DNA from: Nemertoderma westbladi
Lineage: Eukaryota > Animalia > Xenacoelomorpha
NCBI GenBank assembly: GCA_032718475.1
Contig: JAUCBJ010005081.1
Span: 1-49,719 of the forward strand
Direction of reading: 5' to 3'
Length of the DNA stretch: 49,719 nt
The notes beneath the pieces were generated by a model that saw only the letters and a list, made by a program, of their open reading frames with translations, did no database searches and was not told the DNA's origin. The position numbers and the translations under genes are program-made. Below are positions 1 to 49,719 of the stretch, in pieces (positions within the stretch are counted from its first letter, which is position 1; each line of letters begins with the position of its first letter).

Positions 1-247
1 GGTCAAAGAAAAGAATTAGAAAAAAGAAAAGGACAAAAAAGTCATAAAAAACTGGTTGGATATTATGTATAGCTATAGTAACTGTAAATGCTGAATGTAT
101 TAGCAATAAGATGATAGATGCCTATATAGCAATGTTATTAATAAACTGAATTAAATAAAAAACTGAATTATTCTGCTATCGCTATAGTTTCAGACTTTCT
201 GGACTTATAATTAACTGATCTAATTTGTAACGGATATAATCGTAAAT

Positions 248-2848
248 ATGGACCCAAATCGCCAAATTATCGGCGAATTACGTAACACGATAGATCTACT
301 GGAATATTCGCAACCCGGATCCCCTGACTTTGATACAAATTGGAGCACCCTGCTAAATGAGAACGTGCGAGTCATTAAATTCACCGGGCGAGAGGGACCG
401 GATTCTAAGAATCTACGAGCCCTCCGGTTAGCTGATGCTAGTACGAGACTGAAAAGAACTCGGAACGCAAAGGCAACCGGAGGGGACGATTCGTCGTTTT
501 GGGAAACGTTCCGGCAGAGCGTCTACAGATCCCGATGTTTGATCTACGACAACGAGGGAAACGCGACGCCCACCTCGAAAGCGATTACGTTGGCGAGATG
601 TCAAAGTTTCGTCGACGACAAGAGTACGTACCTCGCCCACTGGGGAAACCTGTCGGAGTGTACGGCGACGCTTCGAGAGGAACGCGTATCGATTATCCAA
701 AACCGAGACGACTACCAAGAAAAGTACGGGGCGAAAGAATACGGTCGATCCTTAGTCGTCGTCCTCGGAACCCTGGACGGTTTGGTACTGGTGTGCCGAA
801 TATTCCCGACACCCAGACAGGAAGTGCAGGCAGCCGGAGCGATCTGGTTGCTGCCTCCGGAAATCCAAAAGATCCTCTTCGACTTCGACGTCATTAAAAT
901 CGGGTCGGATATCAAGGCGGACGTCCGGAACGACTACGCGAACGCCCCTGCAGGAAGAAACCGACGAGACGACCTCAACGCCCTTAGCCATTGCATCGAC
1001 ACTCAAACGCTACTAGCCTGGTTACGATTCGCCGAGTTCATGCGAGGATTCCAAGAGGTGAGACCGACGAAATCCGGGATCGGCTACCTCGCTGTGCTCA
1101 ACGGCGGTATCGACTTCAAACCCCAGAAATTCCGGGACTATAATAAAATATACGGTGGATACCCGGGATTGGAAATAAAGAGCGAGCGAGAGGGTCGATG
1201 GAAGGACGTTGATCGGAAGTGGACGATACACCAAAGGTGGGAGAATCCTGATCGACGGAACTACGTTTACGTCGTTATGGAGTGCTACACCGTCGCTAAG
1301 TTTATCTGTAAAACTCTCGATAACCTTATTACGGCGGTCCCCCTTTCCTTCGTCGACTACGACTGGAACGAGGTTATAAACCACGCGTTTAAAGCGGTCG
1401 AGAACATTACACCGGGAGAATCGAAAACACCCGCCGTTATCGATTCCTGGGACGAGAGCGGACCTTACGACATCCCTACGATTACCGAACTTCTCGGTGC
1501 GGAGGAGCCTCTGATCTCCTCGGAAGGGGAAGAGATATGGCTAAACGAGGGTGTTCTACTCTCCACCCCGAAGCGACAACTCGAGCCGGAGGCCGCGTAT
1601 GGACCGGCCGCCAAACGGGTTGCCTCGGCCGAACCGATGAAGAGAGCAGGCGTTTACACCCCACGCGGCTCCGGTAGCCCCGCGAGGGAGGTAGCCACTA
1701 CAGCTGCATTGAGCGACTTCGGCGACATATGCCAACGGTTATCCCCGTATCCTTTCCCGGGTGGCGAAGATTGGTCGTCGGAGATTCCGAGTACCAGCCA
1801 CCAACGGACCCGCGCAGCGATACTGATCGAGGAGGGCCCCAGCGATGCGCCGACCCCCGACGATCTCCTCGGTATCCCTCCGTCTAAAACCCCGGCACCT
1901 CTTCGCCGACCAGCGGTGGCTACTACACCCGCCGTTCCTCAGGACCCTATGCGACTAACCCGTTGGTACGCCGAGCAAACTGAATGGATCCACCGCCAGA
2001 AACGGTCATCCGAGTTGAGACCAGCGGGACACAAAGAAGGTTATCGGAGCGAGAACCTATTACGCAAAAGCCTAGCATTCCGCGGGCTACCGACCACCGA
2101 GAATATTCCGAAGAGCGACCGACGACTCGAATACTACGTCGGCGTCCCGATTCCGATATTTCCTGGTCGAGAGATACAGTTGGAGGTATGCGGCGACTGC
2201 GGTTCGGAGCAGTGCCCACGCAGCAGAAGGAATCGGGTTACCGATTCTTGCCTCCAGCTCCTCGGGATACTCTATTGCCCATACTGCGCGACATCGGGCC
2301 ACGACGTTTCCGTCTGCCCGATCCTTTATAACCTCTGCACCACGTGCGGTTTCCGTGGACATTCCTCTAGCCCCCGCTGCTATATCAAATGTCCAACCAA
2401 AGACGTTACCGCTATGGGCAATATGGTCATGTTTGAGACATACGCAAACAGCCACTTAAAGACCAAGGTTCGGAGAAACGCTCGGAATATCGCGCAGGAG
2501 ATGGCGTGCGGATATTTCTCCTTCCCGGAACGCCTCCACACGTCGGCCACGCTACCTTTCCATTACGTGGATCTGCTACTGAGCGCCGGATTATTCGGTC
2601 CATTTGAAGTCATTAGACGATTATACTCGTATAAAGAGGAGTTCGGTGACGGAGAATGGTTCCTAGAGGCACGCAAATCTGAGTTGGAGAGACGAACCGA
2701 CATGATCCCGATGCCTTCGAAAGGAAGAGCCGCCAGGAGACAAGCCGAAGCGTTACTCACGATGGATGTTGACGCTCCTCTACCAGCCATAGCGATCGAT
2801 GAGAGTCGACGGGCGAAGAGACGAAAGGCGTATCAGAGAAAGAAATAG
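248..2848 (+). CDS. 866-aa retroelement accessory protein: degenerate DEDDy/WRN-EXD-like 3'-5' exonuclease domain, low-complexity linker, CCHC zinc knuckles, basic C-terminus
   Basis: Long, intronless, GC/CpG-rich ORF in AT-rich flanks. LPPEIQKILFDFDVIKIGSDIKAD..CIDTQTL..GIGYLA..RW..YVYVVMECY follows the WRN/EXD layout (LP..L..LL.D..I.KVG.GI..D..CVDL..GL..LA..W..YAA.D). CPYCATSGHDVSVC is CX2CX4HX4C and CTTCGFRGHSSSPRC is CX2CX4HX5C. The protein ends RRAKRRKAYQRKK. ORF is well supported; the domain call is by eye. Confidence 0.7.
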   Translation: MDPNRQIIGELRNTIDLLEYSQPGSPDFDTNWSTLLNENVRVIKFTGREGPDSKNLRALRLADASTRLKRTRNAKATGGDDSSFWETFRQSVYRSRCLIYDNEGNATPTSKAITLARCQSFVDDKSTYLAHWGNLSECTATLREERVSIIQNRDDYQEKYGAKEYGRSLVVVLGTLDGLVLVCRIFPTPRQEVQAAGAIWLLPPEIQKILFDFDVIKIGSDIKADVRNDYANAPAGRNRRDDLNALSHCIDTQTLLAWLRFAEFMRGFQEVRPTKSGIGYLAVLNGGIDFKPQKFRDYNKIYGGYPGLEIKSEREGRWKDVDRKWTIHQRWENPDRRNYVYVVMECYTVAKFICKTLDNLITAVPLSFVDYDWNEVINHAFKAVENITPGESKTPAVIDSWDESGPYDIPTITELLGAEEPLISSEGEEIWLNEGVLLSTPKRQLEPEAAYGPAAKRVASAEPMKRAGVYTPRGSGSPAREVATTAALSDFGDICQRLSPYPFPGGEDWSSEIPSTSHQRTRAAILIEEGPSDAPTPDDLLGIPPSKTPAPLRRPAVATTPAVPQDPMRLTRWYAEQTEWIHRQKRSSELRPAGHKEGYRSENLLRKSLAFRGLPTTENIPKSDRRLEYYVGVPIPIFPGREIQLEVCGDCGSEQCPRSRRNRVTDSCLQLLGILYCPYCATSGHDVSVCPILYNLCTTCGFRGHSSSPRCYIKCPTKDVTAMGNMVMFETYANSHLKTKVRRNARNIAQEMACGYFSFPERLHTSATLPFHYVDLLLSAGLFGPFEVIRRLYSYKEEFGDGEWFLEARKSELERRTDMIPMPSKGRAARRQAEALLTMDVDAPLPAIAIDESRRAKRRKAYQRKK

Positions 2849-3004
2849 TGGATCGGGATATTCCAGGAACATTTATCGAACATTTATTTTTATACAAACT
2901 CTAGGCCAAATTAATTAAAAACTATGCAATATTAAATTTGGGTTTTTTATATTGGGAATGACCTACGCAAACTCAATCGACCGACAGACTTCACGAAGGT
3001 CATT

Positions 3005-3012
3005 GGGGGGGA
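3005..3012 (+). promoter_or_regulatory. Polypurine tract of an LTR retroelement
   Basis: GGGGGGGA lies one base before TGTT, the start of the putative LTR. Confidence 0.6.
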
Positions 3013-3013
3013 C

Positions 3014-5056
3014 TGTTCGCGGTATTTCAACTTTCCATAACGCGAGTTGAATATTTTTGTATTTATTTAAAATTGATTATTCCGATATTACTACTGGGTG
3101 CGGGACCATGGGTTTTGGGCACATTCAATAAACTGGGGGCGATTTATGGGCGAACTTTGGGGCAACTTACAGGGTACGGGAATAATTTCATAGTTATAAG
3201 GGCCAGGGGGGGATGGAAAATGCAAGCAGTATTCAGGTTAGCCTGAGTACTATTAGGCCCTGGCCAACTTCCTGCTGCCTGTAGGGGTGGATTTGGTAAT
3301 GCGCCAGGCCTAAAGGACAAGGACTGCCCTTAGCGGTCCCTGGCCAACAGCAGCCATTACGAGACTGAAAAGAACTCGGACCGCTGACTGCTTGTGTCAG
3401 GGATTTGCGACGGGCACCGACGGCCCCTTAGTAGCCAAGCCGTTCTGGTTCTCGATGATCGTTCCCTTCGGGGTTCGTGAGGGGTGGAGCGGACACGCGA
3501 ACGGGTGGCCAACTAACGACTGCCCCCTGACCTAAGCCGTACTGGTTCTCGATGACCGATCCCTTCGGGGTTCGTGAGGGGTGGGACGGACATGCGAAAG
3601 GGCTGGCCACAGGACGGGTTTGACGAGAACTGCCCTTAGCGGTCTCTGGTCAACGGCAGCTACTACGAGACTGAAAAGAACTCGGAACGCTGACTGCTTG
3701 TACTGGGATTTGCGACGGGAACCGACGACAGACCCCTTAGCCAAGCCGTACTGGTTCTCGATGATCGTTCCCTTCGGGGTTCGTGAGGGGTGGAACGGAC
3801 ACGCGATGGGGTCGAAAGACAAAGGACTAGACTCGACTAGACTCTACTGGCCTACCGACTGTTCGGAGCAGTTTCTCGGCTGCCGAAGCGACTACGAGCC
3901 GGAAACGGACTCGGAAAGCCTAGGTGGTTGGGTTTCTGTGATGAACTGACGGACCCCTAGCCAAGCCGTTCTGGTTCTCGATGATCGAACCCTTCGGGGT
4001 TCGTGAGGGGTGGAACGGACACGCGAACGGGTCCACCGACACGACAGACTCCTAGCCAAGCCGTACTGGTTCTCGATGACCGAACCCTTCGGGGTTCGAG
4101 AGGGTTGGTACGGATACGCGACAGAGTCTACCGACTGGACCGACCCTTAGCCAAGCCGTGCTGGTTCTCGATGATCGTTCCCTTCGGGGTTCGTGAGGGG
4201 TGGAACGGACACGCGACAGGGTCGACCGACACCGACACTACGGCACTAAGACTGGGACCGAGGGAAAATCTGGGGAACATTAGGTAGGCTAAAATTCTGA
4301 GCAAACAGTGGGTTATTAAATAATATACTGTAGGGATTTATATTATCGTGTATAATTATTGTGAATATTTGGTGTATATTGATTTGGGGAAGCCCAAAAT
4401 TATTCTTAATCAAGTTTCAATGATGTTGAACGGGTTTCAACTATAGGAAGTTACATTAAAGAGTATATCCAACTAATGCAGCTTTTTATCAACCGCAAAC
4501 TTGCATCTCAGAAAATATTCCCTCCCCACAATCAATATCCGGTGACTGGCCGGGGCTCGGTGGTCTGTTAAGTCACGTCTCCAGCATCGGCGTTTTTCCC
4601 CCCTGGTGTAGGGATAACGGCAACACTTATAATAACAATCGCTACAGGTGAACCTAATTTCACCAAAATCGGAGATAACAAATTTTCGGATTTGATTGAC
4701 AAGTTTGTTGCAAATTGTCAGCGGTTTTTTCCGATTTTTGGAGCACAAATTTCTTTCTCAGAATCTCAGCCGAAATTTTTCTACGTAAATTTGGGGTCGC
4801 TGATTCCGAATTTCAAGTCAAGTTTTCCATTTCGACCTACGGTTAGACTTTTATACGCGCCGAAATTTCGAGAATATTGACAAGATATACAATTTTTGTA
4901 AGCAGTTTTCCCAGATAACGTGTTACCTGGTGTTTCGAAGATGACTTAATCAACTTCAATTTGGGGAACATAGTAGGACAAATTATCAGAGAACATATGG
5001 GTTTGGTTAGTTTTATTCCATTTGCCTCGGATTTATTACTTTTAATAACGCAAACA
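3014..5056 (+). mobile_element. Putative ~2.04-kb 3' LTR (TGTT...AACA) of a BEL/Pao- or Gypsy-type element whose body extends left of the window
   Basis: Starts TGTTCGCGGTATT after the PPT and ends AATAACGCAAACA, an 11/13 inverted match. The partner LTR and gag-pol are not in the window. Confidence 0.6.
3326..4224 (+). ncRNA. Array of structured RNA hairpins: six ~69-nt K-turn/cUUCGg hairpins, two longer GAAA-capped hairpins and one variant
   Basis: Type A cores at 3432-3500, 3534-3597, 3738-3806, 3958-4026, 4053-4121 and 4148-4216. Type B at 3326-3415 and 3632-3720. Basal stems show compensatory changes. ACCGAC linkers recur between units. Confidence 0.65.
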
Positions 5057-5776: not shown

Positions 5777-5903
5777 AACCCGTTTTTAGTTCCAGTTTTT
5801 ACCCTAAAAACAGTATGTGAGGAAGGGCACAGTGTATCAAGGATTTTGATTACCAAAAACCGTCGTCACTTTTGTTTGCTGCTCCACCGATCTCTGCAAC
5901 AAA

Positions 5904-6065
5904 GATAAACCGAACGCCGCTGATAAACCGAACGCCGCTGATAAACCGAACGCCGCTGATAAACCGAACGCCGCTGATAAACCGAACGCCGCTGATAAAC
6001 CGAACGCCGCTGATAAACCGAACGCCGCTGATAAACCGAACGCCGCTGATAAACCGAACGCCGCC
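5904..6065. repeat. 18-bp minisatellite, 9 copies (GATAAACCGAACGCCGCT)
   Basis: Nearly perfect tandem copies. Confidence 0.95.
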
Positions 6066-6102
6066 GATACCAACCGAGTCTCGATGATTGCGTTCATTCT
6101 AC

Positions 6103-6151
6103 CATGACCTACTATAACAGTTATAGTTGTTAACTGTTAAAGTAGGTCATG
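6103..6151. repeat. Inverted repeat, ~21-bp stem
   Basis: CATGACCTACT.TAACAGTTA pairs with TAACTGTTA.AGTAGGTCATG. Confidence 0.8.
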
Positions 6152-7578: not shown

Positions 7579-7855
7579 AACATTTACGTTGTAGCAACTT
7601 ACAATATCGTTAAAACATATTAATTTGATTCTCAGTAAGTTGTTATATTAATACGGTCAGCGCTGTCAGATAAGCTGATTATCCTGGTGTTGTTGTTAAG
7701 TTGCTAAGCAACATACCAATCTCACTATGTACTAACAGCTGTAGTCCTAATCTCAGCTATATGGGGAGGTGAGATAGGTCCTACTATTTAGAGTATTGTC
7801 CAGTAATTGTGACTCCGCCACATGACCCCCCCCCCCCCCCCAGACTCGAAATAGT

Positions 7856-10555
7856 TTACAAATAGTCCGGCGGGTGGATTGTTCGTCCTGACCGAGTTTG
7901 TGTGGGCGCTAAGGGTGGGCTCTGTGATGGGACAATTTTATTCGGAGCCGCTGGTTGTATGGGAACCGGAATAGGGTTAGGTGGTCGACCACGGCGCCGT
8001 GGATGGTCAAGGGTGACAGGTTTAGTTATGTCAAGATGTGCTGGTTTCAGTCGGTCGACCGAAACTGTTTCGGTACGACCCCCCATCTCAATCTTGAACG
8101 TTTTTGTTCCAGTTTCGAGAACCCTGTAGGGGCCCTCATAGGGCCGTTCTAGCGGTGTCCGGTGGGCATCGCGTCGGATGAAGACGTAGGTGGCGTTCTG
8201 TAGGCCCGGGGGAACTGACGACGAAGTCAAACCATGGCGTGATGTGGGAACCGGAACAAAACGCCCAACCACTTGACGAAGTTGGGGAAGTATTGTTGAC
8301 GGGGTGTGTTGGGTTTCTATAGACGGTGGTAGGAACTCTCCCGGGACAGTGAGCGGAGCACCATAAACGAGCTCGGCGGAGGAGGTTCCTAAGTCGTCCT
8401 TGGGTGCTGTCCGGATTCCGAGAAGCACCCATGGTAATGCGTCTACCCAATCAGGGTTGTCGAGAGAGGCTCGAAGGGCAGACTTGAGATGACGGTGAAA
8501 CCGTTCTACCAGTCCATTCGCCTGTGGGTGATACGCGGTGGTGCGGTGTAGTTGGATGCCCAGCAGCTTGTTGATGGCCGACCAGAAGTGGGAGGTGAAT
8601 TGTGAACCCCAGTCCGATGAGAGATCGGCTGGAACACCGAATCGGGCGATCCATGTCGAAATGAGTGCACGCGCACAGCTCTCTGTGGAAGTTTCACTGA
8701 GGGGTACAGCCTCTGGCCACCGAGTGAAGCGGTCCACAATCGTCAGCAGGTGGGTGAAACCGTGTGATGGTGGTAGAGGACCAACGAGATCAACATGTAT
8801 GTGGTCGAATCGGCGGTGAGGGGTTGCGAAGGTGCCGAGGGGTGCACGTATGTTGCGTTGCACCTTGGAGGTCCGGCACGGGATGCAGGTCTTAACCCAG
8901 TCTCCTACTTCTTTGCGGAGGCCGTGCCAGACAAACATATCAGCAATGATTGTCTTGGTTGCGCGAGCCCCAGGGTGTGACAGACCGTGGATGGTGTTGA
9001 ATACACGTCGTCGCCAGGCCTTGGGAACGACTGGGCGAGGGTGGCCGAGGGAGGTGTCGCATTGTAGTGTGGCACCTGATGGGCCAAGTGAGACGTCCTC
9101 CAGCTGAAGGCCGGAAACAGCCGTGCGGTACATGGCCATCTCTGTGTCGACAAGTTGAGCGTCCGCCATGGCCCTGTAGTCGAGCCCAGGAAGCAAGTTG
9201 CATATGGTGTTAGTATTAGTCCTGGAGAGTGCATCTGCCACACAGTTGTCTTTACCAGCGATGCGTTGGATGTCTGTGGTAAACTCCGAGATGTAGGAGA
9301 GGTGACGCTGCTGTCTATTGGACCATGGGTCACTGATCTTTGCGAGCACAAAAGTTAGTGGTTTGTAGTCAGTGTACACGGTGAAGGGCCGACCTTCCAG
9401 GAAGTACCGGAAGTGGCGGATTGCTAGGTACAGCGCAAGCAGCTCCCGGTCGAATGCACTATATTTGACTTCCGGGGGACGTAGTTGGCGGCTAAAGAAC
9501 GCAAGGGGGCGCCATGAGTTACCGATGAGTTGTTCTAGAACAGCACCCACTGCTGTACCTGATGCGTCCACTGTGAGTGCTGTGTGGGCGTTGGTGTTGG
9601 GATGAGTTAACATCGTCGCATTGGCGAGGGCATCCTTTGCGATCTGGAATGCGTGATCCATGTTGGGAGTCCAGTTTAGTGTTTCCCCGCCAGGGCCGCA
9701 TATAGGGGTCGCATGATGTCAGCAGCGGAGGGGACGAACCGATGGTAAAAGTTTACCATCCCCACAAACTCCTGTAGGCCTTTCACCGTGGTTGGCTGTG
9801 TAAACTCCCGGATGGCGGCGACCTTGTCGGGGAGCGGAACAGCACCGTGAGTTGAAATACGGTGGCCAAGGAAGTCGATTGTTTCACGACCAAACTGACA
9901 TTTTGCCAGGTTGATAACAAGGCCTTGGTGTTGAAGGCGCATGAAGAGCTGATGGAGGTGTTCACGGTGCTCCGACTTGGACCGACTTGCAACGAGAATG
10001 TCATCGAGGGAAACAAATATGAAGTCGAGTCCCTGGCACACCGTGTCCATCAGTCTCTGGAAGGCCTGGGCTGCGTTCTTCAGCCCGAACGGCATCCGAA
10101 GGAACTCGAACAGTCCGAACGGGGTGATGACCGCAGTCTTGGCGATGTCGGCTTCTCGCTGTGACAGGGATCTGGTGGTAGCCGCGCACCAGATCGATCT
10201 TCGAGAAGATCTTCGCACCTGCCAGTCGGGAGGAGAAGTCCTGGATGTGGGGGATGGGGTATCGGTCCGGAGTTGTGGCGTCGTTAAGTCGTCGGTAGTC
10301 GCCACACGGCCGCCAACCGACCGAGGGTTTGGGGGCCATGTGGAGGGGCGACGCCCAGGGACTGTTGGACCAGCGGATGATCCCCATCTCTTCCATTTTG
10401 CGGAACTCCTCCCTCGCGATTTCCAGTTTATCTGGAGGTAGGCGACGGACCCTGCGTGGGGATGTAGTGCTCCACGCCGTGTTTCGCGGTCGGGTCAGAA
10501 AACCGTGGTACTGTAATGTCAGGATATTCGGCAAGTATCTGGGCGAACTCGTCAT
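7856..10555 (-). pseudogene. Gypsy pol (RT, RNase H, integrase), frameshifted
   Basis: Motifs [38 protein letters not shown] (for YLDD), TVDASG, VADALSR, HHCC zinc finger, HVDLVGP and NGLVERFH, spread over three ORFs. Confidence 0.92.
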
Positions 10556-10572
10556 TGGAGGCAGCTATAGAA

Positions 10573-10920
10573 CTAAGGTGGAGGGCGTGGCCCCGGGTCT
10601 GTCCACATGGGATCGAGAGGATCGCCGAGTCCGTTTAGGTCCCAGAGCCTTGCGGCACGGTCGCGCCGTGAGAGGCTGTATGTTTTATTGAGTTTCGCCT
10701 TTAGGGAGTTATATTTATCTCCGGCTGGAGGATCTCGTATTAGGTTGAGGAGCCGGCTGGCGGTGTCTTGGTCCAAAGCACCCACGACGTAGTAGTACTT
10801 CGTGTCGTCCGCTATGATACTACGGATATTAAATTGTGCCTCGGCCTGGGCGAACCATACCTCAGGCTGGGAAGTCCAGAAGGAGGGGAGTTTCAGGGAG
10901 ACTGCGTTCGCTTCAACCAT
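10573..10920 (-). pseudogene. Truncated Gypsy gag N-terminus
   Basis: AVSLKLPSFWTSQPEVWFAQAEAQF is a typical Mag-like gag start. Similarity breaks after LNGLGD (~10620) and joins the post-protease linker, so the gag C-terminus and protease are missing. Confidence 0.85.
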
Positions 10921-13854
10921 GGTTGTTGATTTGGTTGAGAAAGTTCGTTAGTGATTCGGTCGCATCGGTTCTTTTGGGGTTTTCTCAAAAATTCGTTTTG
11001 AGACGCCGGGTCACCAATGTAGCAACTTACAATATCGTTAAAACATATTAATTTGATTCTCAGTAAGTTGTTATATTAATATGGTCAGCGCTGTCAGATA
11101 AGCTGATTATCCTGGTGTTGTTGTTAAGTTGCTAAGCAACATACCAATCTCACTATGTACTAACAGCTGTAGTCCTAATCTCAGCTATATGGGGAGGTGA
11201 GATAGGTCCTACTATTTAGAGTATTGTCCAGTAATTGTGACTCCGCCACAACGTCTAGAATCTGAAATATTAACTGTAGGTTTACAGTTTTGATATATTT
11301 AGAATCTACAGGGTTTCTAACATATATAGGCCAAATATCGCATACAAAGGGTAAGGTCACCTCATTTGGGAAGCATTTATGTTTAACAAAGTCAATATAG
11401 AAAGCATAAACGTCCATATCTGTAACGCTACAAATGTGGCCATAGATTTTGATAATATTAATCTCATACAAGTATAATGGTACGTGTGGTAAGGCAATTT
11501 TAATTTATGCCGCATTAACCCCAAGAGTTAATGTGAAAAATAAACACCTATGATGTATGGCGGTGGTAAGCGTTTTTGTCAACAATCTGTAACGCGTCAC
11601 CGTTACAGTGCAGTGCGTTACAGATAAGGGATGTCTCATCTGTAACGCATTATATAACCAGTTATCGATGCGTTACAGACTGTAGGTTTCAGTCCTATCT
11701 ATATGACAGTCCTATCTGTAACGGAGTGTCATCCTGAAATACAATAAGGCATCACTGACAATACTTGAATGCCTACGCGTTTGATACGTTCTTCGTCTTC
11801 CTACTGACATCCTAACTGCTCATGGTAATGTGGTAGTGTAAGATGGGTAAGTGTAAAACGCGGATCCGGATCGGTACCCGGATTTTGGGGTTAAAACGCG
11901 GATCCGGATTTTCATGAAATCCGGAAATGAGTCCAAAATGCGAATTCAAGATAATTTTCATTGTCAAGTGCGTTACTTGATCCCGTAAGGGGAGTAAAAC
12001 ACGGATTCATGTTTATCTCTATCCGGGAAGAGGTGATTGTGGATTCTGGGGAGTAATAGCGCAGATTCACTTCACATATGAAATTGTATGAATCCAGAGC
12101 TTCTGGGTCCGTGGTAAATAATTTAGGAATTAATTGCAAATATACACTCTCCATCTTATAAATTTTATGTATTAATAAAATGTGCTTTCTGTAAAATTTC
12201 GCTTTATTTCGTTTAGAATTGTAGAAGATACATTTCCTACAAACAGTGTTTTTTTTAACATACAATATATTGTACAGACGGTCCTTTGCCCAATGTTTTG
12301 TTTTTCGTTTTTCATGATTAGGGTCTGCAGACGTACAGTATATAGATAGGTTTCAATAAATTTGTATGTCTAATTTCATCTGACATGAAGCAATAAATAA
12401 ACAAAAGTAAAGAATCCAGTGACTGTTATCAGTGAGTCTTGTGTAACTTCAATGTAAGAGATTGAGATGTATAATTTACTCTAATGATTAAATACTCTAA
12501 TGCGTATAAAAGGCCTAGATTTTACTATCAATTTCTAAATCATTGCCTTAACATCACTTACTGACTTACATGACGGACTTGTGCACTACTTATATTATTG
12601 TGATAAGTTTAGTCAGATCCGTTTATTGGATGTGGTAATAGACGTCTCTGAATCAGTTGCAGAGAAACGCCAGGAAGCGGTTAAATAAGTACAGAGAGCA
12701 AATGTACCGCGGTTGTTATACATAGTATTTTAAACAAGCATATAAAAAGCGGCGCGATAGAGAAAATTTAACACGGGATAAAAAAAAGTCGTGTAAAACA
12801 AGATTATCGGTTACACAGAAAAATGTTAGTGAAAAACTTTTTCTATATTTATTGGAAACCATGTGTATTAAGTACATATAATTTAGTGGATGCGATGGTT
12901 ACGGGCAGATATCGCTGTTTGTTACAGATGTTTGTCCAATAAATTACCTTATTGTCGAAGCAATAAGTTATAAATACTGCAAAATCCATATAACATAATT
13001 ACCGTTACAGATGGCCGTTACAGACGTTTGTCCCATAAATGTCATCACTGTAATGCGTTACAGTGGTAGACAAAAACGTTACAGATATGACATTAGTTTT
13101 TGCCATATGTCTCCCTTTGAGCACCGCCTCATGCTCTCCCTCTACCATCACAAGATTCGCCATGAAATTATCTTTCGAATGGTGTATGGTATGGCACTAA
13201 TTTCCGACAAAAATTTTTTGGTCAATTTGTACACCTTTTTGGCCACTTTTAAGCTTATTGACCGACCCAGCTGCATTTTTAAGAATGCTGTGCCGGCTTA
13301 TCGACAAAATTCAATGTTGATGACACGACAACAATATTAAATTACCTTACAAAAACAACCCAATACATTTGCTATTTATTAAATACTTCAATGCAAAGTA
13401 AAATATAATATCTACCGGTCTTGTATTTTTTAAAACACAATTTCTTCATGCATTTTTAAGGGGTATTTATTGTCTGCGTTGTAATGATCTCCACTGCTCT
13501 GCATTTTAATGTTAATACTAGAAGTTGCCCTGATCTTCCTTTGACTTATAATTAAATCGAGGAATTAAAAAAAATCAAATTATGAATTATGTTCCATTCT
13601 ATTCAATTAAATTCAATAAACGCCAATAATATAACCCATTACTACTAACACACAATAACAATATTCTAAAATGGGAATGTAAAATTATCAGCATAATTAT
13701 ATAAATTGCACAAAATGAACAACAAAAGATTTTGATTAAAAGGCACCAGGTGGATAATAACTATTTAGTTCAGTAACATACCAGTTTGTAAGCGATATTG
13801 TAATTGCTATAGACCATAATCCAAACCTAATGAATACCTAACTTTATATGCGAT

Positions 13855-29600: not shown

Positions 29601-32110
29601 CAATACTTGTGACTGAGTGTCCACGTCTTTCTATTGGATCCAATTTACCTGCACCTCAATACTTGGTCCACGTCTTTCTATTGGACCCAACTTACCTGGA
29701 CCTCAATACTTGTGACTGAGTGTCCACGTCTTTCTATTGGGTCCAACTTACCTGGACCTCAATACTTGTGACTGAGTGTCCACGTCTTTCTATTGGACCC
29801 AACTTACCTGGACCTCAATACTTGTGACTGAGTGACCACGTCTTTCTATTGGGTCCAACTTCCTGGACCTCAATACTTGTGACTGAGTGTCCACGTCTTT
29901 CTATTGGACCCAACTTACCTGGACCTCAATACTTGTGACTGAGTGCCCATGTCTTTCTATTGGGTCCAACTTACCTGCACTTCAATACTTGTGACTGAGT
30001 GTCCATGTCTTTCTATTGGACCCAACTTACCTGGACCTCAATACTTGTGACTGAGTGTCCACGTCTTTCTATTGGACCCAACTTACCTGGACCTCAATAC
30101 TTGTGACTGAGAGTCCACGTCTTTCTATTGGACCCAACTTACCTGGACCTCAATACTTGTGACTGAGTGTCCACGTCTTTCTATTGGATCCAATTTCCCT
30201 GCACCTCAATACTTGGTCCACGTCTTTCTATTGGACCCAACTTACCTGGACCTCAATACTTGTGACTGAGTGCCCACGTCTTTCTATTGGGTCCAACTTA
30301 CCTGCACTTCAATACTTGTGACTGAGTGTCCACGTCTTTCTATTGGATCCAATTTACCTGCACCTCAATACTTGGTCCACGTCTTTCTATTGGACCCAAC
30401 TTACCTGGACCTCAATACTTGTGACTGAGTGTCCACGTCTTTCTATTGGGTCCAACTTACCTGGACCTCAATACTTGTGACTGAGTGTCCACGTCTTTCT
30501 ATTGGACCCAACTTACCTGGACCTCAATACTTGTGACTGAGTGCCCACGTCTTTCTATTGGGTCCAACTTCCTGGACCTCAATACTTGTGACTGGGTGTC
30601 CACGTCTTTCTATTGGACCCAACTCACCTGGACCTCAATACTTGTGACTGAGTGCCCACGTCTTTCTATTGGGTCCAACTTACCTGCACTTCAATACTTG
30701 TGACTGAGTGTCCACGTATTTCTATTGGACCCAACTTACCTGGACCTCAATACTTGTGACAGAGTGTACACATCTTTCTATTGGGTCCAACTTACCTGGA
30801 CCTCAATACTTGTGACTGAGTGTCCACGTCTTTCTATTGGACCCAACTTACCTGGACCTCAATACTTGTGACTGAGTGTACACATCTTTCTATTGGGTTC
30901 AACTTACCTGGACCTCAATACTTGTGACTAAGTGTCCACGTCTTTCTATTGGACACAACTTACCTGGACCTCAATACTTGTGACTGAGTGTCTACGTATT
31001 TCTATTGGACCCAACTTACCTGGACCTCAATACTTGTGACTGAGTGTCCACGTCTTTCTATTGGATCCAATTTACCTGCACCTCAATACTTGGTCCACGT
31101 CTTTCTATTGGACCCAACTTACCTGGACCTCAATACTTGTGACTGAGTGTCCACGTCTTTCTATTGAACCCAACTTACCTGGACCTCAATACTTGTGACT
31201 GAGTGTCCACGTCTTTCTATTGGTTCCAACTTACCTGGACCTCAATACTTGTGACTGAGTGTCCGCGTCTTTCTATTGGACCCAACTTACCTGGACCTCA
31301 ATACTTGTGACTGAGTGCCCACGTCTTTCTATTGGGTTCAACTTACCTGGACCTCAATACTTGTGACTAAGTGTCCACGTCTTTCTATTGGACACAACTT
31401 ACCTGGACCTCAATACTTGTGACTGAGTGTCTACGTATTTCTATTGGACCCAACTTACCTGGACCTCAATACTTGTGACTGAGTGTCCACGTCTTTCTAT
31501 TGGATCCAATTTACCTGCACCTCAATACTTGGTCCACGTCTTTCTATTGGACCCAACTTACCTGGACCTCAATACTTGTGACTGAGTGTCCACGTCTTTC
31601 TATTGAACCCAACTTACCTGGACCTCAATACTTGTGACTGAGTGTCCACGTCTTTCTATTGGTTCCAACTTACCTGGACCTCAATACTTGTGACTGAGTG
31701 TCCGCGTCTTTCTATTGGACCCAACTTACCTGGACCTCAATACTTGTGACTGAGTGCCCACGTCTTTCTATTGGGTTCAACTTACCTGGACCTCAATACT
31801 TGTGACTAAGTGTCCACGTCTTTCTATTGGACACAACTTACCTGGACCTCAATACTTGTGACTGAGTGTCTACGTATTTCTATTGGACCCAACTTACCTG
31901 GACCTCAATACTTGTGACTGAGTGTCCACGTCTTTCTATTGGATCCAATTTACCTGCACCTCAATACTTGGTCCACGTCTTTCTATTGGACCCAACTTAC
32001 CTGGACCTCAATACTTGTGACTGAGTGTCCACGTCTTTCTATTGGACCCAACTTACCTGGACCTCAATACTTGTGACTGAGTGTCCACGTCTTTCTATTG
32101 GGTCCAATTT
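23624..32110. repeat. 56-bp tandem array (~150 copies) of exon end plus splice donor
   Basis: Minus unit TGGGTCCAATAGAAAGACGTGGACACTCAGTCACAAGTATTGAGGTCCAG|GTAAGT. 47-bp deletion variants and higher-order blocks are present. Confidence 0.97.
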
Positions 32111-32224
32111 ACCAGAGCCACGGCCCAAATTAATACCTTCTAGAACCAGTCCTGGTGTTACTGGCGCCCCGTCTCCCATCATTAGTCGTGCGTCGGTAGG
32201 TCGGAGATCCGATATCGCATCCCC
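32057..32224 (-). CDS. SVIL: Supervillin-like exon, flanked by arrays on both sides
   Basis: atttag|GDAISDLRPTDARLMM...LVLEGINLGRGSGKLDPIERRGHSVTSIEVQ|gtaagt; phase 0/0; matches the supervillin segment ILDGVNVGRG.G as I recall it. Confidence 0.92.
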
Positions 32225-32229
32225 CTAAA

Positions 32230-35200
32230 TATAAGGAAGGATAAGGAAATATAACGAATGATATAAGGAAATATAATGAATGATAAGGAAATATAATGAA
32301 TGATAAGGAAATATAATGAATGATAAGGAAATATAATGAATGACAAGGAAATATAATGAATGATAAGGAAATATAATGAATGATAAGGAAATATAATGAA
32401 TGATAAGGAAATATAATGAATGATAAGGAAATATAATGAATGATAAGGATATATAATGAATGATAAGGAAATATAATGAATGACAAGGAAATATAATGAA
32501 TGATAAGGAAATATAATGAATGATAAGGAAATATAATGAATGATAAGGAAATATAATGAATGATAAGGAAATATAATGAATGATAAGGAAATATAATGAA
32601 TGATAAGGATATATAATGAATGATAAGGAAATATAATGAATGACAAGGAAATATAATGAATGATAAGGAAATATAATGAATGATAAGGAAATATAATGAA
32701 TGATAAGGAAATATAATGAATGATAAGGAAATATAATGAATGATAAGGAAATATAATGAATGATAAGGAAATATAATGAATGATAAGGATATATAATGAA
32801 TGATAAGGAAATATAATGAATGATAAGGATATATAATGAATGATAAGGAAATATAATGAATGATAAGGAAATATAATGAATGATAGGAAATATAATGAAT
32901 GATAAGGAAATATAATGAATGATAAGGAAATATAATGAATGATAAGGAAATATAATGAATGATAAGGATATATAATGAATGATAAGGATATATAATGAAT
33001 GATAAGGATATATAATGAATGATAAGGAAATATAATGAATGATAAGGAAATATAATGAATGATAGGAAATATAATGAATGACAAGGAAATATAATGAATG
33101 ATAGGAAATATAATGAATGATAAGGAAATATAATGAATGATAAGGAAATATAATGAATGATAAGGATATATAATGAATGATAAGGATATATAATGAATGA
33201 TAAGGACATATAATGAATGATAAGGAAATATAATGAATGATAAGGAAATATAATGAATGATAAGGAAATATAATGAATGATAAGGAAATATAATGAATGA
33301 TAAGGAAATATAATGAATGATAAGGATATATAATGAATGATAAGGAAATATAATGAATGATAAGGAAATATAATGAATGATAAGGAAATGTAATGAATGA
33401 TAGGAAATATAATGAATGATAAGGAAATATAATGAATGATAAGGAAATATAATGAATGATAAGGAAATATAATGAATGATAAGGAAATATAATGAATGAT
33501 AAGGAAATATAATGAATGATAAGGAAATATAATGAATGATAAGGATATATAATGAATGATAAGGAAATATAATGAATGATAAGGACATATAATGAATGAT
33601 AAGGATATATAATGAATGATAAGGAAATATAATGAATGATAAGGAAATATAATGAATGATAAGGAAATATAATGAATGATAAGGAAATATAATGAATGAC
33701 AAGGAAATATAATGAATGATAAGGAAATATAATGAATGATAAGGATATATAATGAATGATAAGGAAATATAATGAATGATAAGGAAATATAATGAATGAT
33801 AAGGAAATATAATGAATGATAAGGAAATATAATGAATGATAAGGATATATAATGAATGATAGGAAATATAATGAATGATAAGGAAATATAATGAATGATA
33901 AGGAAATATAATGAATGATAAGGATATATAATGAATGATAGGAAATATAATGAATGATAAGGAAATATAATGAATGATAAGGAAATATAATGAATGACAA
34001 GGAAATATAATGAATGATAAGGAAATATAATGAATGATAAGGAAATATAATGAATGATAAGGAAATATAATGAATGATAAGGAAATATAATGAATGATAA
34101 GGATATATAATGAATGATAAGGATATATAATGAATGATAAGGATATATAATGAATGATAAGGAAATATAATGAATGATAAGGAAATATAATGAATGATAG
34201 GAAATATAATGAATGATAGGAAATATAATGAATGATAAGGAAATATAATGAATGATAAGGATATATAATGAATGATAAGGAAATATAATGAATGATAAGG
34301 AAATATAATGAATGATAAGGATATATAATGAATGATAAGGATATATAATGAATGATAAGGAAATATAATGAATGATAAGGAAATATAATGAATGATAGGA
34401 AATATAATGAATGATAAGGAAATATAATGAATGATAAGGAAATATAATGAATGATAAGGAAATATAATGAATGATAAGGATATATAATGAATGATAAGGA
34501 AATATAATGAATGATAAGGAAATATAATGAATGATAAGGATATATAATGAATGATAAGGAAATATAATGAATGATAAGGATATATAATGAATGATAAGGA
34601 TATATAATGAATGATAAGGATATATAATGAATGATAAGGAAATATAATGAATGATAAGGAAATATAATGAATGATAAGGATATATAATGAATGATAAGGA
34701 TATATAATGAATGATAAGGATATATAATGAATGATAAGGAAATATAATGAATGATAAGGAAATATAATGAATGATAAGGAAATATAATGAATGATAAGGA
34801 AATATAATGAATGATAAGGAAATATAATGAATGATAAGGAAATATAATGAATGATAAGGATATATAATGAATGATAAGGAAATATAATGAATGATAAGGA
34901 CATATAATGAATGATAAGGAAATATAATGAATGATAAGGAAATATAATGAATGATAAGGAAATATAATGAATGATAAGGAAATATAATGAATGATAAGGA
35001 AATATAATGAATGATAAGGAAATATAATGAATGATAAGGATATATAATGAATGATAAGGAAATATAATGAATGATAAGGAAATATAATGAATGATAAGGA
35101 AATATAATGAATGATAAGGAAATATAATGAATGATAAGGAAATATAATGAATGATAAGGATATATAATGAATGATAAGGAAATATAATGAATGATAAGGA

Positions 35201-36339
35201 AATATAATGAATGATAGGAAATATAATGAATGATAAGGAAATATAATGAATGATAAGGAAATATAATGAATGATAAGGACATATAATGAATGATAAGGAC
35301 ATATAATGAATGATAAGGAAATATAATGAATGATAAGGACATATAATGAATGATAAGGAAATATAATGAATGATAAGGAAATATAATGAATGATAAGGAA
35401 ATATAATGAATGATAAGGAAATATAATGAATGATAAGGAAATATAATGAATGATAAGGAAATATAATGAATGATAAGGATATATAATGAATGATAAGGAA
35501 ATATAATGAATGATAAGGACATATAATGAATGATAAGGAAATATAATGAATGATAAGGAAATATAATGAATGATAAGGAAATATAATGAATGATAAGGAT
35601 ATATAATGAATGATAAGGAAATATAATGAATGATAAGGAAATATAATGAATGATAGGAAATATAATGAATGATAAGGAAATATAATGAATGATAAGGAAA
35701 TATAATGAATGATAAGGAAATATAATGAATGATAAGGATATATAATGAATGATAAGGAAATATAATGAATGATAAGGACATATAATGAATGATAAGGATA
35801 TATAATGAATGATAAGGAAATATAATGAATGATAAGGATATATAATGAATGATAAGGATATATAATGAATGATAAGGATATATAATGAATGATAAGGAAA
35901 TATAATGAATGATAAGGAAATATAATGAATGATAAGGATATATAATGAATGATAAGGATATATAATGAATGATAAGGATATATAATGAATGATAAGGAAA
36001 TATAATGAATGATAAGGAAATATAATGAATGATAGGAAATATAATGAATGATAAGGAAATATAATGAATGATAAGGAAATATAATGAATGATAAGGAAAT
36101 ATAATGAATGATAAGGATATATAATGAATGATAAGGAAATATAATGAATGATAAGGACATATAATGAATGATAAGGAAATATAATGAATGATAAGGATAT
36201 ATAATGAATGATAAGGAAATATAATGAATGATAAGGAAATATAATGAATGATAAGGAAATATAATGAATGATAAGGAAATATAATGAATGATAAGGAAAT
36301 ATAATGAATGATAAGGACATATAATGAATGATAAGGAAA
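32230..36339. repeat. 20-bp satellite (~205 copies) abutting a splice acceptor
   Basis: Plus unit ATAATGAATGATAAGGAAAT. On minus it reads ATTTCCTTATCATTCATTAT and grades into the polypyrimidine tract ATTTCCTTATCCTTCCTTATATTTAG. Confidence 0.97.
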
Positions 36340-45542: not shown

Positions 45543-47251
45543 CTACTACTACTAGGATCGGCATGCTGCATTGCAGCTGCATTTTTAAGAATGCTGTGCC
45601 GGCTTGTCAACAAATTTGCACCGCCACAACTCCCTATCACCCATGACATTTGCTAGATCATCCGCATCTTTAAGGCCAGTGTCCTTTAAGATGCGTCTCA
45701 AGAAAGTCATGGGCTGTCCACCATGCTTATTCACTCCATGAGGCTGCCAAAGTACAAGATTATGCACTGGCTGGTCCTCACGGCGAAAGCAATGTCCTGC
45801 AAAGCGGAGGCGATTTTGTTCTAGTGTCAAGCTTGGGGGAACCAATGAGACACCTCCAATGTTATATAGTGTCTGGTTGGAGATGTGTGCATTGTACTTG
45901 ACACAATGAACCCGGCGTAGCATTCTTGTGAATGTGCCGTCCAGAGATTTGGTGTCCTCAGCAGTTAGAGCCCAGCATGGACTCCCGTAGAGGAGTACTG
46001 GAACTACTGCTGCTCTAAATAATCGGACCTTAAGTTTCCGATTAATTCTAGGTGACTTCCAAATCCTGGAAAGCCTATTCAAGGCTGCCCATGCCTTTCC
46101 CTTACGTATTCGAAGGTCCTCACCTGACTTCCGGATCCATGATCCCAGGTAACAGAAGTCGTCCACATGCTCAAGCATACCATCCTTTGAGTTTATGATC
46201 ATCCGATCAGAGACTTGCTGAGGACTTTCAAAGTTAACTGTCAGAATTTTGGTCTTTCTGGAGTTAATAAAAAGACCAACACTAGAAGCAGCATGTTCTA
46301 ATGAGCTGAGGAGCCGTTGGGCTCCCTCTAATGATTCTGAGAGTACTCCTAAGTCATCAGCAAAGTCTAGATCAGTTAGATACTTGGCAGGATTTCCTCG
46401 ACTTCCTGAGCCAGTAGGTGGAGTTATCATCACCCCATCATCATTATGATGATCTAAGGACATGCGTAGAACATAGTCTACCACAATAATGAACAAGAAT
46501 GGTGCAAGTGTGTCTCCCTGGAGGACGCCCCATAACACTTCAAATGGTTCTGTGTCACCGTCAACAGTAGACACAAATGTTGTCGAACCATCGTATACTG
46601 ATCTGATTGCTGCAATAATTTCATCAGGAATCCCATATAATGAAAGTATGCTGAACATACGTGACCGAGAGACTGAATCAAAGGCCTTGAAGAAGTCAAC
46701 AAAGATAACAGCCAGATGCCTGTCTTTCTTTTTTGATAATTCTTCAATTATCCTTCTAAGAGCCAAAATGGGCTTCATGGTCCCACGACCTTTACGGAAC
46801 CCATTCTGATTTCCACGGAGCAGTCTCTCAATGGGATCCCTGATGCGATTTAATAGAATCCTATTGTATAGCTTTGCAGCAATCGAGATCAATGAGATTC
46901 CCCGAAAAGAACCATAGAGTGTTAGGTTGCCCTTCTTGGGAACTGGCACCAACTTATTTGTTTTCATTTCTTGTGGGACTCTTGTTGTTCGGTACATGTC
47001 TACTATGATGGGATAGATGAGCTTTAAACACTCAGGTATTTTAAAGACCTCAGGGGGAACACCATCTACTCCACTGGCACGATTGGTCTTAATGCTCTTT
47101 GCAGCAGCCTTCACTTCTGCAAAGGAGATATCGCCAATGGGAATATCTGGGAGTACAGACTCAGACACTTTTACTTCTATAAAGTTATCAGGCAATACCC
47201 TGTCATTATTGAGGAGCTTTTCAAAGTGGGCTTTCCAACCATTAAGGCGAA
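45543..47251 (-). mobile_element. 5'-truncated RTE-clade LINE with (TAG)n tail and 11-bp TSD
   Basis: TSD TTGGAAGTATA at 45532-45542 and 47252-47262; microsatellite tail; uninterrupted RT frame. Confidence 0.93.
45585..47251 (-). CDS. RTE-type reverse transcriptase, N-terminally truncated (no endonuclease, no native start)
   Basis: PVPKKG, FRGISL, QNGFRKGR, FVDFFKAFDSV, GVLQGDTLAPFLF, LDFADD, FCYLGS, RLRFAGH. Confidence 0.9.
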
Positions 47252-49719
47252 TTGGAAGTATAGCCCAGTATTGGGTGTATGGTGGGGCAATTACCTTGGA
47301 AGTATACCCCAGTATTGGGTGTATGGTGGGGCAATTACCTTGGAAGTATACCCCAGTATTGGGTGTGTTTGGTGGGGCAATTACCTTGGAAGTATACCCC
47401 AGTATTGGGTGTGTGTTGGTGGGGCAATTACCATGGAAGTATACCCCAGTATTGGGTGTATGGTGGGGCAATTACCTTGGAAGTATACCCCAGTATTGGG
47501 TGTGTGGTGGGGCAATTACCTTGGAAGTATACCCCAGTATTGGGTGTGTGGTGGGGCAATTACCTTGGAAGTATACCCCAGTATTGGGTGTGTGTTGGTG
47601 GGGCAATTACCATGGAAGTATACCCCAGTATCGGGTGTATGGTGGGGCAATTACCTTGGAAGTATACCCCAGTATTGGGTGTGTTTGGTGGGGCAATTAC
47701 CTTGGAAGTATACCCCAGTATTGGGTGTGTTTGGTGGGGCAATTACCTTGGAAGTATACCACAGTATTGGGTGTATGGTGGGGCAATTACCTTGGAAGTA
47801 TACCCCAGTATTGGGTGTGTGGTGGGGCAATTACCTTGGAAGTATACCCCAGTATTGGGTGTGTGGTGGGGCAATTACCTTGGAAGTATACCCCAGTATT
47901 GGGTGTGTGTTGGTGGGGCAATTACCATGGAAGTATACCCCAGTATCGGGTGTATGGTGGGGCAATTACCTTGGAAGTATACCCCAGTATTGGGTGTGTT
48001 TGGTGGGGCAATTACCTTGGAAGTATACCCCAGTATTGGGTGTGTGGTGGGGCAATTACCTTGGAAGTATACCCCAGTATTGGGTGTGTGTTGGTGGGGC
48101 AATTACCTTGGAAGTATACCCCAGTATTGGGTGTGTGTTGGTGGGGCAATTACCTTGGAAGTATACCCCAGTATTGGGTGTGTGGTGGGGCAATTACCTT
48201 GGAAGTATACCCCAGTATTGGGTGTGTTTGGTGGGGCAATTACCTTGGAAGTATACCCCAGTATTGGGTGCGTTTGGTGGGGCAATTACCTTGGAAGTAT
48301 ACCCCAGTATTGGGTGTATGGTGGGGCAATTGCCTTGGAAGTATACCCCAGTATTGGGTGTGTTTGGTGGGGCAATTACCTTGGAAGTATACCCCAGTAT
48401 TGGGTGTGTTTGGTGGGGCAATTACCTTGGAAGTATACCCCAGTATTGGGTGTATGGTGGGGCAATTGCCTTGGAAGTATACCCCAGTATTGGGTGTGTT
48501 TGGTGGGGCAATTACCTTGGAAGTATACCCCAGTATTGGGTGTATGGTGGGGCAATTACCTTGGAAGTATGCCCCAGTATTGGGTGTGTTTGGTGGGGTA
48601 ATTACCTTGGAAGTATACCCCAGTATTGGGTGTGTTTGGTGGGGTAATTACCTTGGAAGTATACCCCAGTATTGGGTGTGTTTGGTGGGGTAATTACCTT
48701 GGAAGTATACCCCAGTATTGGGTGTGTTTGGTGGGGCAATTACCTTGGAAGTATACCCCAGTATTGGGTGTGTTTGGTGGGGTAATTACCTTGGAAGTAT
48801 ACCCCAGTATTGGGTGTGTTTGGTGGGGTAATTACCTTGGAAGTATACCCCAGTATTGGGTGTGTTTGGTGGGGCAATTACCTTGGAAGTATACCCCAGT
48901 ATTGGGTGCGTTTGGTGGGGCAATTACCTTGGAAGTATAGCCCAGTATTGGGTGTATGGTGGGGCAATTACCTTGGAAGTATACCCCATTATTGGGTGTA
49001 TGGTGGGGCAATTACCTTGGAAGTATACCCAAGTATTGGGTGTGTTTGGGTGGGGCAATTACCTTGGAAGTATACCCCAGTATTGGGTGTGTTTGGGTGG
49101 GGCAATTACCTTGGAAGTATACCCCAGTATTGGGTGTGTTTGGTGGGGCAATTACCTTGGAAGTATACCCCAGTATTGGGTGTATAGTGGGGCAATTACC
49201 TTGGAAGTATACCCAAGTATTGGGTGTGTTTGGGTGGGGCAATTACCTTGGAAGTATACCCCAGTATTGGGTGTGTTTGGGTGGGGCAATTACCTTGGAA
49301 GTATACCCCAGTATTGGGTGTGTTTGGTGGGGCAATTACCTTGGAAGTATACCCCAGTATTGGGTGTGTTTGGGTGGGGCAATTACCTTGGAAGTATACC
49401 CCAGTATTGGGTGTGTTTGGTGGGGCAATTACCTTGGAAGTATACCCCAGTATTGGGTGTGTTTGGTGGGGCAATTACCTTGGAAGTATACCCCAGTATT
49501 GGGTGTGTTTGGTGGGGCAATTACCTTGGAAGTATACCCCAGTATTGGGTGTGTTTGGTGGGGCAATTACCTTGGAAGTATACCCCAGTATTGGGTGTGT
49601 TTGGTGGGGCAATTACCTTGGAAGTATACCCCAGTATTGGGTGTATAGTGGGGCAATTACCTTGGAAGTATACCCCAGTATTGGGTGTGTTTGGGTGGGG
49701 CAATTACCTTGGAAGTATA

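Follow-up and report, generated by a model that had tools for sequence, protein, structure and literature searches.

Near the start of the 49,719-nucleotide (nt) stretch of Nemertoderma westbladi DNA analyzed here (contig JAUCBJ010005081.1 of GenBank assembly GCA_032718475.1; hereafter, the window), which resembles a repeat-rich animal genome, an 866-amino acid (aa) open reading frame (ORF) is followed by a putative long terminal repeat (LTR). Judging from sequence relationships, the two likely belong to a BEL/Pao-type retrotransposon. The LTR contains two types of predicted RNA hairpins, one of which, denoted module A (65-70 nt), is also found inside the coding sequence of the ORF, whereas the other, denoted module K, is k-turn-like (Table 1).

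A predicted structured RNA module shared by the ORF and the LTR

An initial annotation of the window, made from the sequence alone, reported a motif that starts at positions 442, 3358, 3664 and 3893, and a pattern search of the window recovered it at exactly these places, always on the plus strand; a looser pattern produced one extra match, unrelated to the module. The 32-nt core of module A has no other site in the 49.7-kb window, and the ORF core is identical to the cores of the three successive LTR copies in 29, 31 and 25 of the 32 positions, the chance expectation of such ORF-LTR matches being about 2e-10. The four cores were also used to train a covariance model, which recovers them by construction and otherwise detects nothing with an E-value below 0.65 in the window. 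The exact motif has no matches in viral and metagenome contigs, and searches against Rfam yielded no matches at E <= 5, ribozymes included, for positions 1-5000 of the window, and none for the five loci encoding distant relatives of the ORF (L001-L005, see below).

The hairpin in the ORF is as originally described, with a 10-bp stem (420-429/475-484) and an AGUA/GAA internal loop at codons 58-79. The surrounding region (415-490) has a predicted folding energy of -35.4 kcal/mol (z -6.2), equalled by none of 200 dinucleotide shuffles. With the peptide fixed and the codons redrawn, the hairpin still shows a z-score of -3.5 (1/3000), the top value among 211 windows of the ORF. The LTR copies 1, 2 and 3 fold with z-scores of -5.2, -1.8 and -2.7, respectively, and in all four copies of module A, the plus strand folds better than the minus strand. 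In a blind scan with 80-nt sliding windows, which cut through the ORF hairpin (z -2.6), one of the 114 windows scored below -3. Together, the cores and the predicted folds support the claim that the ORF and the LTR have a structured module in common.

The internal loop of the ORF copy consists, in order, of U.C, A.A, a bulged G, U.A and A.G, that is, the prototype sarcin-ricin (loop E) arrangement, so that the assignment to this type in the initial annotation holds at all five positions of this copy. At the three variable places, the LTR copies have C.C/A.C/U, U.C/A.A/C and G.A/A.A/C, whereas the upper U.A and A.G between Watson-Crick helices are fixed, by sequence, in all four copies. Across the ORF copy and LTR copies 1-3, the lower trans Sugar-edge/Hoogsteen (tSH) pair is thus U.C, C.C, U.C and G.A, with both bases changed in LTR copy 3, and the trans Hoogsteen/Hoogsteen (tHH) pair is A.A, A.C, A.A and A.A; all these combinations are listed or tested as allowed in the available text of an analysis of the sarcin-ricin motif, according to which G-C is never seen at the lower pair (PMC8450098). 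Module A resembles that motif in the 5x4 loop with the tSH pair, the tHH pair, the bulge, U.A and A.G in this order (PMC8450098, available text) and differs from it in the U or C bulge of the LTR copies and in the added 4-bp stem and UGAAA cap; the name is used here for the RNA shape only. A descriptor of the loop, drawn with the copies in view, matches exactly the four module A sites in positions 1-4600 and 0.03 sites per shuffled ORF.

The cap, C-UGAAA-A-G, admits two readings, a GAAA loop closed by a 2-bp stem and a T-loop. The GNRA tetraloop proposed initially is predicted on a 2-3-bp stem in all four window copies, but a T-loop fits equally well or better: the T-loop signature is UGxRA (PMC7583486, available text), with a C:G closing pair and one bulged base (PMC2615604, available text), and the sequence C-U-G-N-R-A-N-G is present in three of the four copies, with LTR copy 3 having G at the U position of the T-loop. 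This deviation might be a feature of the window copy. Variant contigs of the element are numerous in DNA sequencing runs of three studies, indicating a multi-copy family, and in the comparison with these runs (four of the nine listed), G3901 reads T across all read depth in three runs; no change at its partner, 3906, is among the 40 listed differences of the 379 found. If 3906 is indeed unchanged, most genomic copies of the third module would lose the GNRA closing pair and keep the T-loop. The apical stem at 3893, described as changed but paired, is accordingly paired in the window copy but may be peculiar to that copy.

Table 1. Features of the putative BEL/Pao-type element
Feature	Coordinates	Strand	Remarks
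866-aa ORF	248..2848	+	homolog of BEL/Pao LTR retrotransposon ORF3 (third ORF)
predicted DEDD 3'-5' exonuclease-fold domain	359..1417	+	~aa 38-390; AlphaFold, structure searches
aa 47-80 stretch holding the hairpin	386..487	+	predicted disordered; absent from relatives
ORF copy of module A	420..484	+	core 437-468: sarcin-ricin-type loop, 4-bp stem, UGAAA cap; predicted hairpin
conserved Cys/His (zinc-knuckle-like) domain	2189..2590	+	~aa 648-780; invariant Cys/His columns in 11 proteins
purine tract	3005..3012	+	seven G and one A directly before the LTR; likely polypurine tract
putative LTR	3014..4307	+	TG...CA, 7-bp inverted ends; nine tandem hairpin modules (A K K A K A K K K)
LTR module A copy 1	3335..3405	+	core 3353-3384
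two k-turn-like hairpins (module K)	3434-3498, 3531-3595	+	k-turn signature
LTR module A copy 2	3641..3710	+	core 3659-3690
k-turn-like hairpin (module K)	3740-3804	+	k-turn signature
LTR module A copy 3	3869..3938	+	core 3888-3919
three k-turn-like hairpins (module K)	3960-4024, 4055-4119, 4150-4214	+	k-turn signature

Matched changes in the stem

The LTR copies of the motif were initially thought to sit on different stems. This is not borne out: the ORF stem appears, at the sequence level, to be homologous to those around the cores at 3353 and 3659. Between the ORF copy and LTR copy 1, the nine outer pairs comprise five two-sided changes, one one-sided change and three identical pairs, with none broken; the next seven positions include three two-sided changes, one identical pair and three that are unpaired in the ORF copy. 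The 5' arms of LTR copies 1 and 2 share only 7 and 9 of 17 bases, respectively, with that of the ORF copy, and a 12-nt purine/pyrimidine run is found in exact register in the 5' arms, a match equalled by 3 of 2584 ORF windows. The flanks of the ORF core pair with -26.6 kcal/mol (0 of 2000 shuffles), better than any LTR stem; for LTR copies 1 and 3, flank pairing has p-values of 0.002 and 0.01, and in three of the four copies of module A, the flanks pair best with their own partner. In nearly all other genomic copies, T433 is C, a synonymous difference that converts U.G to a C-G pair. The stem covariation and the synonymous-recoding z-score of -3.5 are signs of selection on RNA shape, and the RNA module is probably selected.

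The ORF3 protein and its relatives

Pfam contains no family for the 866-aa ORF, and its 10 homologs have nothing above the cut-off either. Three word-indexed protein searches were similarly unproductive: two yielded no matches, and the third returned nothing but a seed sequence. The 10 relatives, with 27-39% identity, come from a search of 1.84 billion representative proteins. With these relatives as the alignment, AlphaFold produced a partly confident model (mean predicted local distance difference test score, pLDDT, of 48.8), compared to a pLDDT of 32 from the single sequence. In a structural search with the exonuclease domain, the EXO domain of Nibbler was matched with Z 13.0 (root mean square deviation 4.0 over 202 aligned residues), with diDNases, EXD1, RNase D, WRN and Egalitarian (Z 10.2) as further fold neighbors; the 50 listed fold matches are all DnaQ/DEDD-type nucleases or polymerases containing such a domain, and EXD2 and Nibbler also rank first in Foldseek (E 1e-3). 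The predicted catalytic acidic residues D101, E103 and D225 are in place, and the last site is occupied by E345 instead of D. A DJ-1-like assignment, suggested by three rows of a PDB sequence search (E 0.06-0.25), was rejected because the fold search points elsewhere. The Cys/His domain (~aa 648-780) is the best conserved part of the protein, and the tail is arginine-rich.

Among the listed differences between genomic copies, 29 of 40 lie in the ORF, and 23 of these 29 are synonymous, against an expectation of 24% (P 4e-10), indicating that purifying selection acts on the ORF; the 12 listed indels (of 44 found) all lie outside it.

Out of 46 candidate stretches in metagenome contigs, five were confirmed as related loci (L001-L005), compared to none in viral contigs (0; 0 of 16; 0 of 4) and 0 of 13 in prokaryote genomes. 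In L004, the relative is the third ORF, located 33 nt after pol (Pao Peptidase_A17, DUF5641, RVT_1) and behind a DUF1759 gag, and L005 has paired 407-bp terminal repeats that are 94% identical. The ORF3 relative of L001 (8070-11182) is flanked by inverted repeats and by direct repeats that have diverged (73-76%) and may represent a non-autonomous element of the same kind, and L002 (79-2022) encodes a relative with a tandemly duplicated Cys/His domain. The five loci, which total 55,773 bases, yield one covariance-model match (E 4.4) and one descriptor match, the latter outside the element. At a closer evolutionary distance, a contig ~83% identical to the window over 410-945 spans the hairpin, albeit with an alignment that begins only 10 nt upstream of it, which is suggestive of the presence of the module there. 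With the motif missing in the distant loci and possibly present in this contig, the module looks, by sequence, specific to this lineage.

The putative LTR and its k-turn-like hairpins

The region 3014-4307 can be interpreted as an LTR on the strength of its ends and the adjacent purine tract. Nearly all other copies have G in place of A4303, and their 7-bp ends are thereby perfectly complementary. One LTR lies within the window, which starts 247 nt before the ORF, and no second one was found there. The sequence after the LTR (4308-4600) is covered by contigs of all four compared runs and hence seems to be part of the element, either as the leader of the next unit or through collapsed assembly; its start is AT-rich, unlike the usual tRNA primer site.

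Module K is UUCG-capped, contains a conserved lower internal loop and alternates with the three module A hairpins (3434-4214). All six paralogous copies display the signature of a standard k-turn (PMC4382518, available text), namely, two helices separated by a 3-nt bulge and then G.A and A.G, and the next pair is U.U, C.U or C.A; the minimum-energy fold favors another pairing, with a 5-nt bulge. We considered the lower loop of module K as an 11-nt GAAA receptor, which, according to the available text of bioRxiv 2022.12.15.518780, needs the core U3.A8, C2-G10 and C1-G11. This assignment is weakened by the replacement of U3 with C in five of the six copies and by a C.C mismatch of the outer pair in the sixth; the receptor shuffle control is not independent of the data given that its pattern was drawn from the module K copies. 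A low-depth contig of run X6, which may be an RNA run although no run is listed as such, skips 716 nt (3444-4161) and thus retains one A and one K module, as a result of either deletion or assembly collapse. Low-depth contigs in two runs join 473, in the ORF hairpin, to 3658, at the second LTR core.

Probable insertion of the hairpin into the ORF

The initial annotation viewed the module as overprinted on codons. In the strict sense, this is not supported: the hairpin codons (aa 58-79) lie wholly inside an extra stretch of ~32 residues that is predicted to be disordered and is missing in all seven scored relatives. In the model, a strand (aa 40-46) is followed by a segment with pLDDT below 50 (aa 47-80) and a confident helix from aa 82. 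The distance from the first strand to the catalytic Asp is 31-32 residues in 7 of the 7 scored relatives and 63 residues here, with the best candidate strand, and several structural alignments pair aa 35-39 with the first residues of the matched nuclease. Pairwise tests of the position of the protein insertion were significant for none of five relatives (p 0.3-1.0). From the sequence comparison and the model, the hairpin looks inserted rather than overprinted, and copying from the LTR to the ORF seems the likelier direction because the LTR has three copies. The segment at 674-703 (aa 143-152), downstream of the first catalytic motif, resembles the first strand of the relatives more closely than aa 38-46, hinting at an internal domain duplication or rearrangement.

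Other features of the window

On the minus strand, ~7590-11250 is another LTR retrotransposon, whose two LTRs (~230 bp) are nearly identical and which has RNase H and integrase domains and pol in pieces, and 45585-47471 is a reverse transcriptase ORF with RVT_1 and DUF6451. An open frame at 5850-6107 contains a CCxxDxCN motif, reminiscent of the last part of Ly6/three-finger domains, and then an 18-bp tandem repeat that encodes NAADKP units. A long 56-bp tandem satellite with more than 140 overlapping family members begins at ~23480, and after it, 32000-36000 shows extreme G-over-C skew.

Possible functions of module A

The explanation that we favor, with a probability of about 0.45, is that module A is a multi-copy protein-binding tag for the packaging or transport of the element RNA. 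An LTR module would have been copied in frame into an early part of the ORF that encodes a dispensable loop, probably via a template switch of the reverse transcriptase. The ORF copy would since have been kept at the RNA level, with paired changes accumulating in the stem and none in the loop E core and the UGAAA cap. The grooves of loop E and the cap would be read by a protein, most likely the ORF3 product of the element itself, with its predicted exonuclease fold, Cys/His knuckles and arginine-rich tail. The LTR copies would tag the genomic RNA; the ORF copy, ~170 nt after the start codon, would tag the ORF3 message or feed back on it. Such a tag would act by analogy with the I-factor signal read by Egalitarian or with a retroviral response element.

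Several observations weigh against this explanation. The canonical bulged G is present in the ORF copy only (1 of 4), the LTR copies having U, C and C, which are rare but observed variants; given that, in the available text of PMC8450098, a bulged A or C is rare in the sarcin-ricin motif and the change from bulged G to C destabilizes model duplexes by ~5 kcal/mol, the LTR copies are less likely to form a canonical motif. The flank pairing of LTR copy 2 is at the chance level (p 0.19), the pairs were taken from the minimum-energy fold of each copy itself, and the covariation concerns only four paralogs in a stem register picked after inspection. One of the 29 listed ORF differences falls within 420-484, compared to ~0.7 expected, which speaks neither for nor against suppression. 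The motif is found in none of the five distant loci, whose DNA has no similarity to that of the element. With respect to the insertion, the sequence test for a first strand at aa 38-46 falls short of significance (p 0.17), and a higher score is obtained for aa 143-152; on either placement, the hairpin codons are outside the conserved core. As for the protein, the acidic residues suggest an active nuclease over a mere adaptor, and a predicted fold in common with Egalitarian is no proof of function.

The alternative that fares best among the others, although we regard it as somewhat unlikely, is RNA-RNA docking, whereby the cap, as a T-loop or a GNRA loop, would contact neighboring k-turn-like modules and compact the LTR, while, through the ORF copy, the coding region would dock on the LTR array for genome dimerization or end-to-end contact, with no specific protein required. 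A T-loop is compatible with C-UGAAA-N-G in three of the four window copies; LTR copy 3 has G at the T-loop U position in the window, but most of its counterparts elsewhere in the genome probably fit as well. According to the available text of PMC2615604, every T-loop engages in a long-range or ligand contact. Each A module is followed by K modules, with one low-depth contig keeping one of each, and the MusD transport element requires long-range contacts (PMC3362945, available text). The weak point is the partner: none was found, and the core U of the 11-nt receptor is replaced by C in five of the six module K copies. Docking and a neutral ORF copy, considered next, are not mutually exclusive.

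The ORF stem differs from every LTR stem yet pairs best of all (-26.6 kcal/mol, 0 of 2000 shuffles), which is difficult to reconcile with the possibility that only the LTR modules are functional and that the ORF copy is a passenger, which reached a tolerant protein loop in a single copying event. The likeness of its core would then be due to gene conversion or template switching, and hairpin-templated repair would account for the stem; such repair should erase the asymmetric loop rather than keep it, and the canonical bulged G is in the ORF copy alone. The location of this copy in a dispensable protein segment and its absence from distant relatives fit a passenger, and the contigs that join 473 to 3658 might reflect core exchange, but, on balance, we consider this scenario improbable.

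Capture of the primer tRNA, in the manner of a T-box, by the T-loop, loop E and the neighboring k-turns appears highly improbable. It would agree with the AT-rich bases that follow the LTR in place of a typical primer site. The k-turn, loop E and T-loops are also the three motifs that occur together in T-box Stem I, with the same UGxRA signature (PMC7583486, available text); the T-boxes are bacterial and combine these motifs, including a pair of interlocked T-loops, with a specifier codon in a single stem, whereas here each hairpin has a single cap, the k-turns are in separate hairpins, Rfam gives no match, and the ORF copy is left unexplained. An undescribed self-cleaving ribozyme, as in retrozymes or Penelope-like repeats, is equally hard to credit even if tandem structured modules in a terminal repeat and conserved non-canonical loops bring it to mind, considering the lack of Rfam matches (E <= 5, positions 1-5000) and of a hammerhead core pattern in the LTR, and that cleavage within the conserved ORF would cut the element's own message.

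Relationship to known systems and implications

Exonuclease ORFs have been encountered in other retrotransposons, for example, in the nematode Cer elements. Structured RNA signals of retroelements are likewise familiar: the Rev response element of human immunodeficiency virus is located in env, and those of human T-lymphotropic virus and HERV-K are in the LTR, all serving Rev- or Rex-type RNA export. The MusD transport element is also a structured cis element with long-range contacts that directs RNA export (PMC3362945, available text). These export elements reside in a third ORF or in the LTR and feature non-canonical internal loops or long-range contacts, which likens module A to them. Compared by description, the present case differs from them in having one module in both the ORF and the LTR, among k-turn-like arrays.

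In the bdelloid LTR retrotransposons Juno and Vesta, an extra ORF3 encodes a DEDDy-type exonuclease, in some cases with a Cys-His-Cys motif; RNA 3'-end processing or ribonucleoprotein assembly has been proposed for it, with no demonstrated role, and in the available text, no RNA module in the ORF or LTR is mentioned and the term 'secondary structure' does not occur (PMC5408684). Unlike Juno and Vesta, the relatives of the ORF described here follow a BEL/Pao gag-pol and carry a large conserved Cys/His domain. In the I-factor, as in our element, a bulged stem-loop is located in a retrotransposon coding sequence, and its reader, like the candidate reader here, has an exonuclease-homology domain: according to the available text of PMC13186709, Egalitarian binds bulged stem-loops, including that of the I-factor, two per RNA, and more than one stem-loop per RNA raises the specificity of the Egalitarian-BicD interaction. 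Egalitarian is a host protein that reads bent A-form helices and U-A pairs (PMC13186709, available text), whereas module A combines a high GC content with a loop E core, recurs in the LTR and would be read by a protein encoded in the element; to the Egalitarian-type signal, defined in the same text by a bent helix with 3' bulges and, at two sites of the minor groove, U-A pairs, it bears a resemblance only. Exonuclease ORF3s in bdelloid LTR elements and structured signals in coding regions are thus already known. Searches of a mainly open-access literature collection turned up no description of module A, of the BEL/Pao ORF3 family or of an LTR that carries a k-turn/loop E array, and no LTR of nine tandem hairpins with recognizable three-dimensional motifs.

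A more far-reaching possibility, which we put forward as doubtful, is that the LTR is an array of three-dimensional modules of the ribosome or riboswitch type, in which hairpins with loop E and a T-loop alternate with k-turn hairpins, that the element placed one such module in its own exonuclease gene, and that the captured exonuclease serves as a private RNA adaptor, a self-made counterpart of Egalitarian or Rev, which would recognize the genome through the LTR array and regulate its own message through the ORF copy. The four paralogous copies are a natural example of a non-canonical loop that varies only by allowed substitutions, and the 65-nt hairpin found in both the ORF and the LTR offers a small, defined candidate target for ORF3. 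If the adaptor interpretation is true, the exonuclease ORF3 of LTR retrotransposons, hitherto unexplained, would acquire a function as well as a target.

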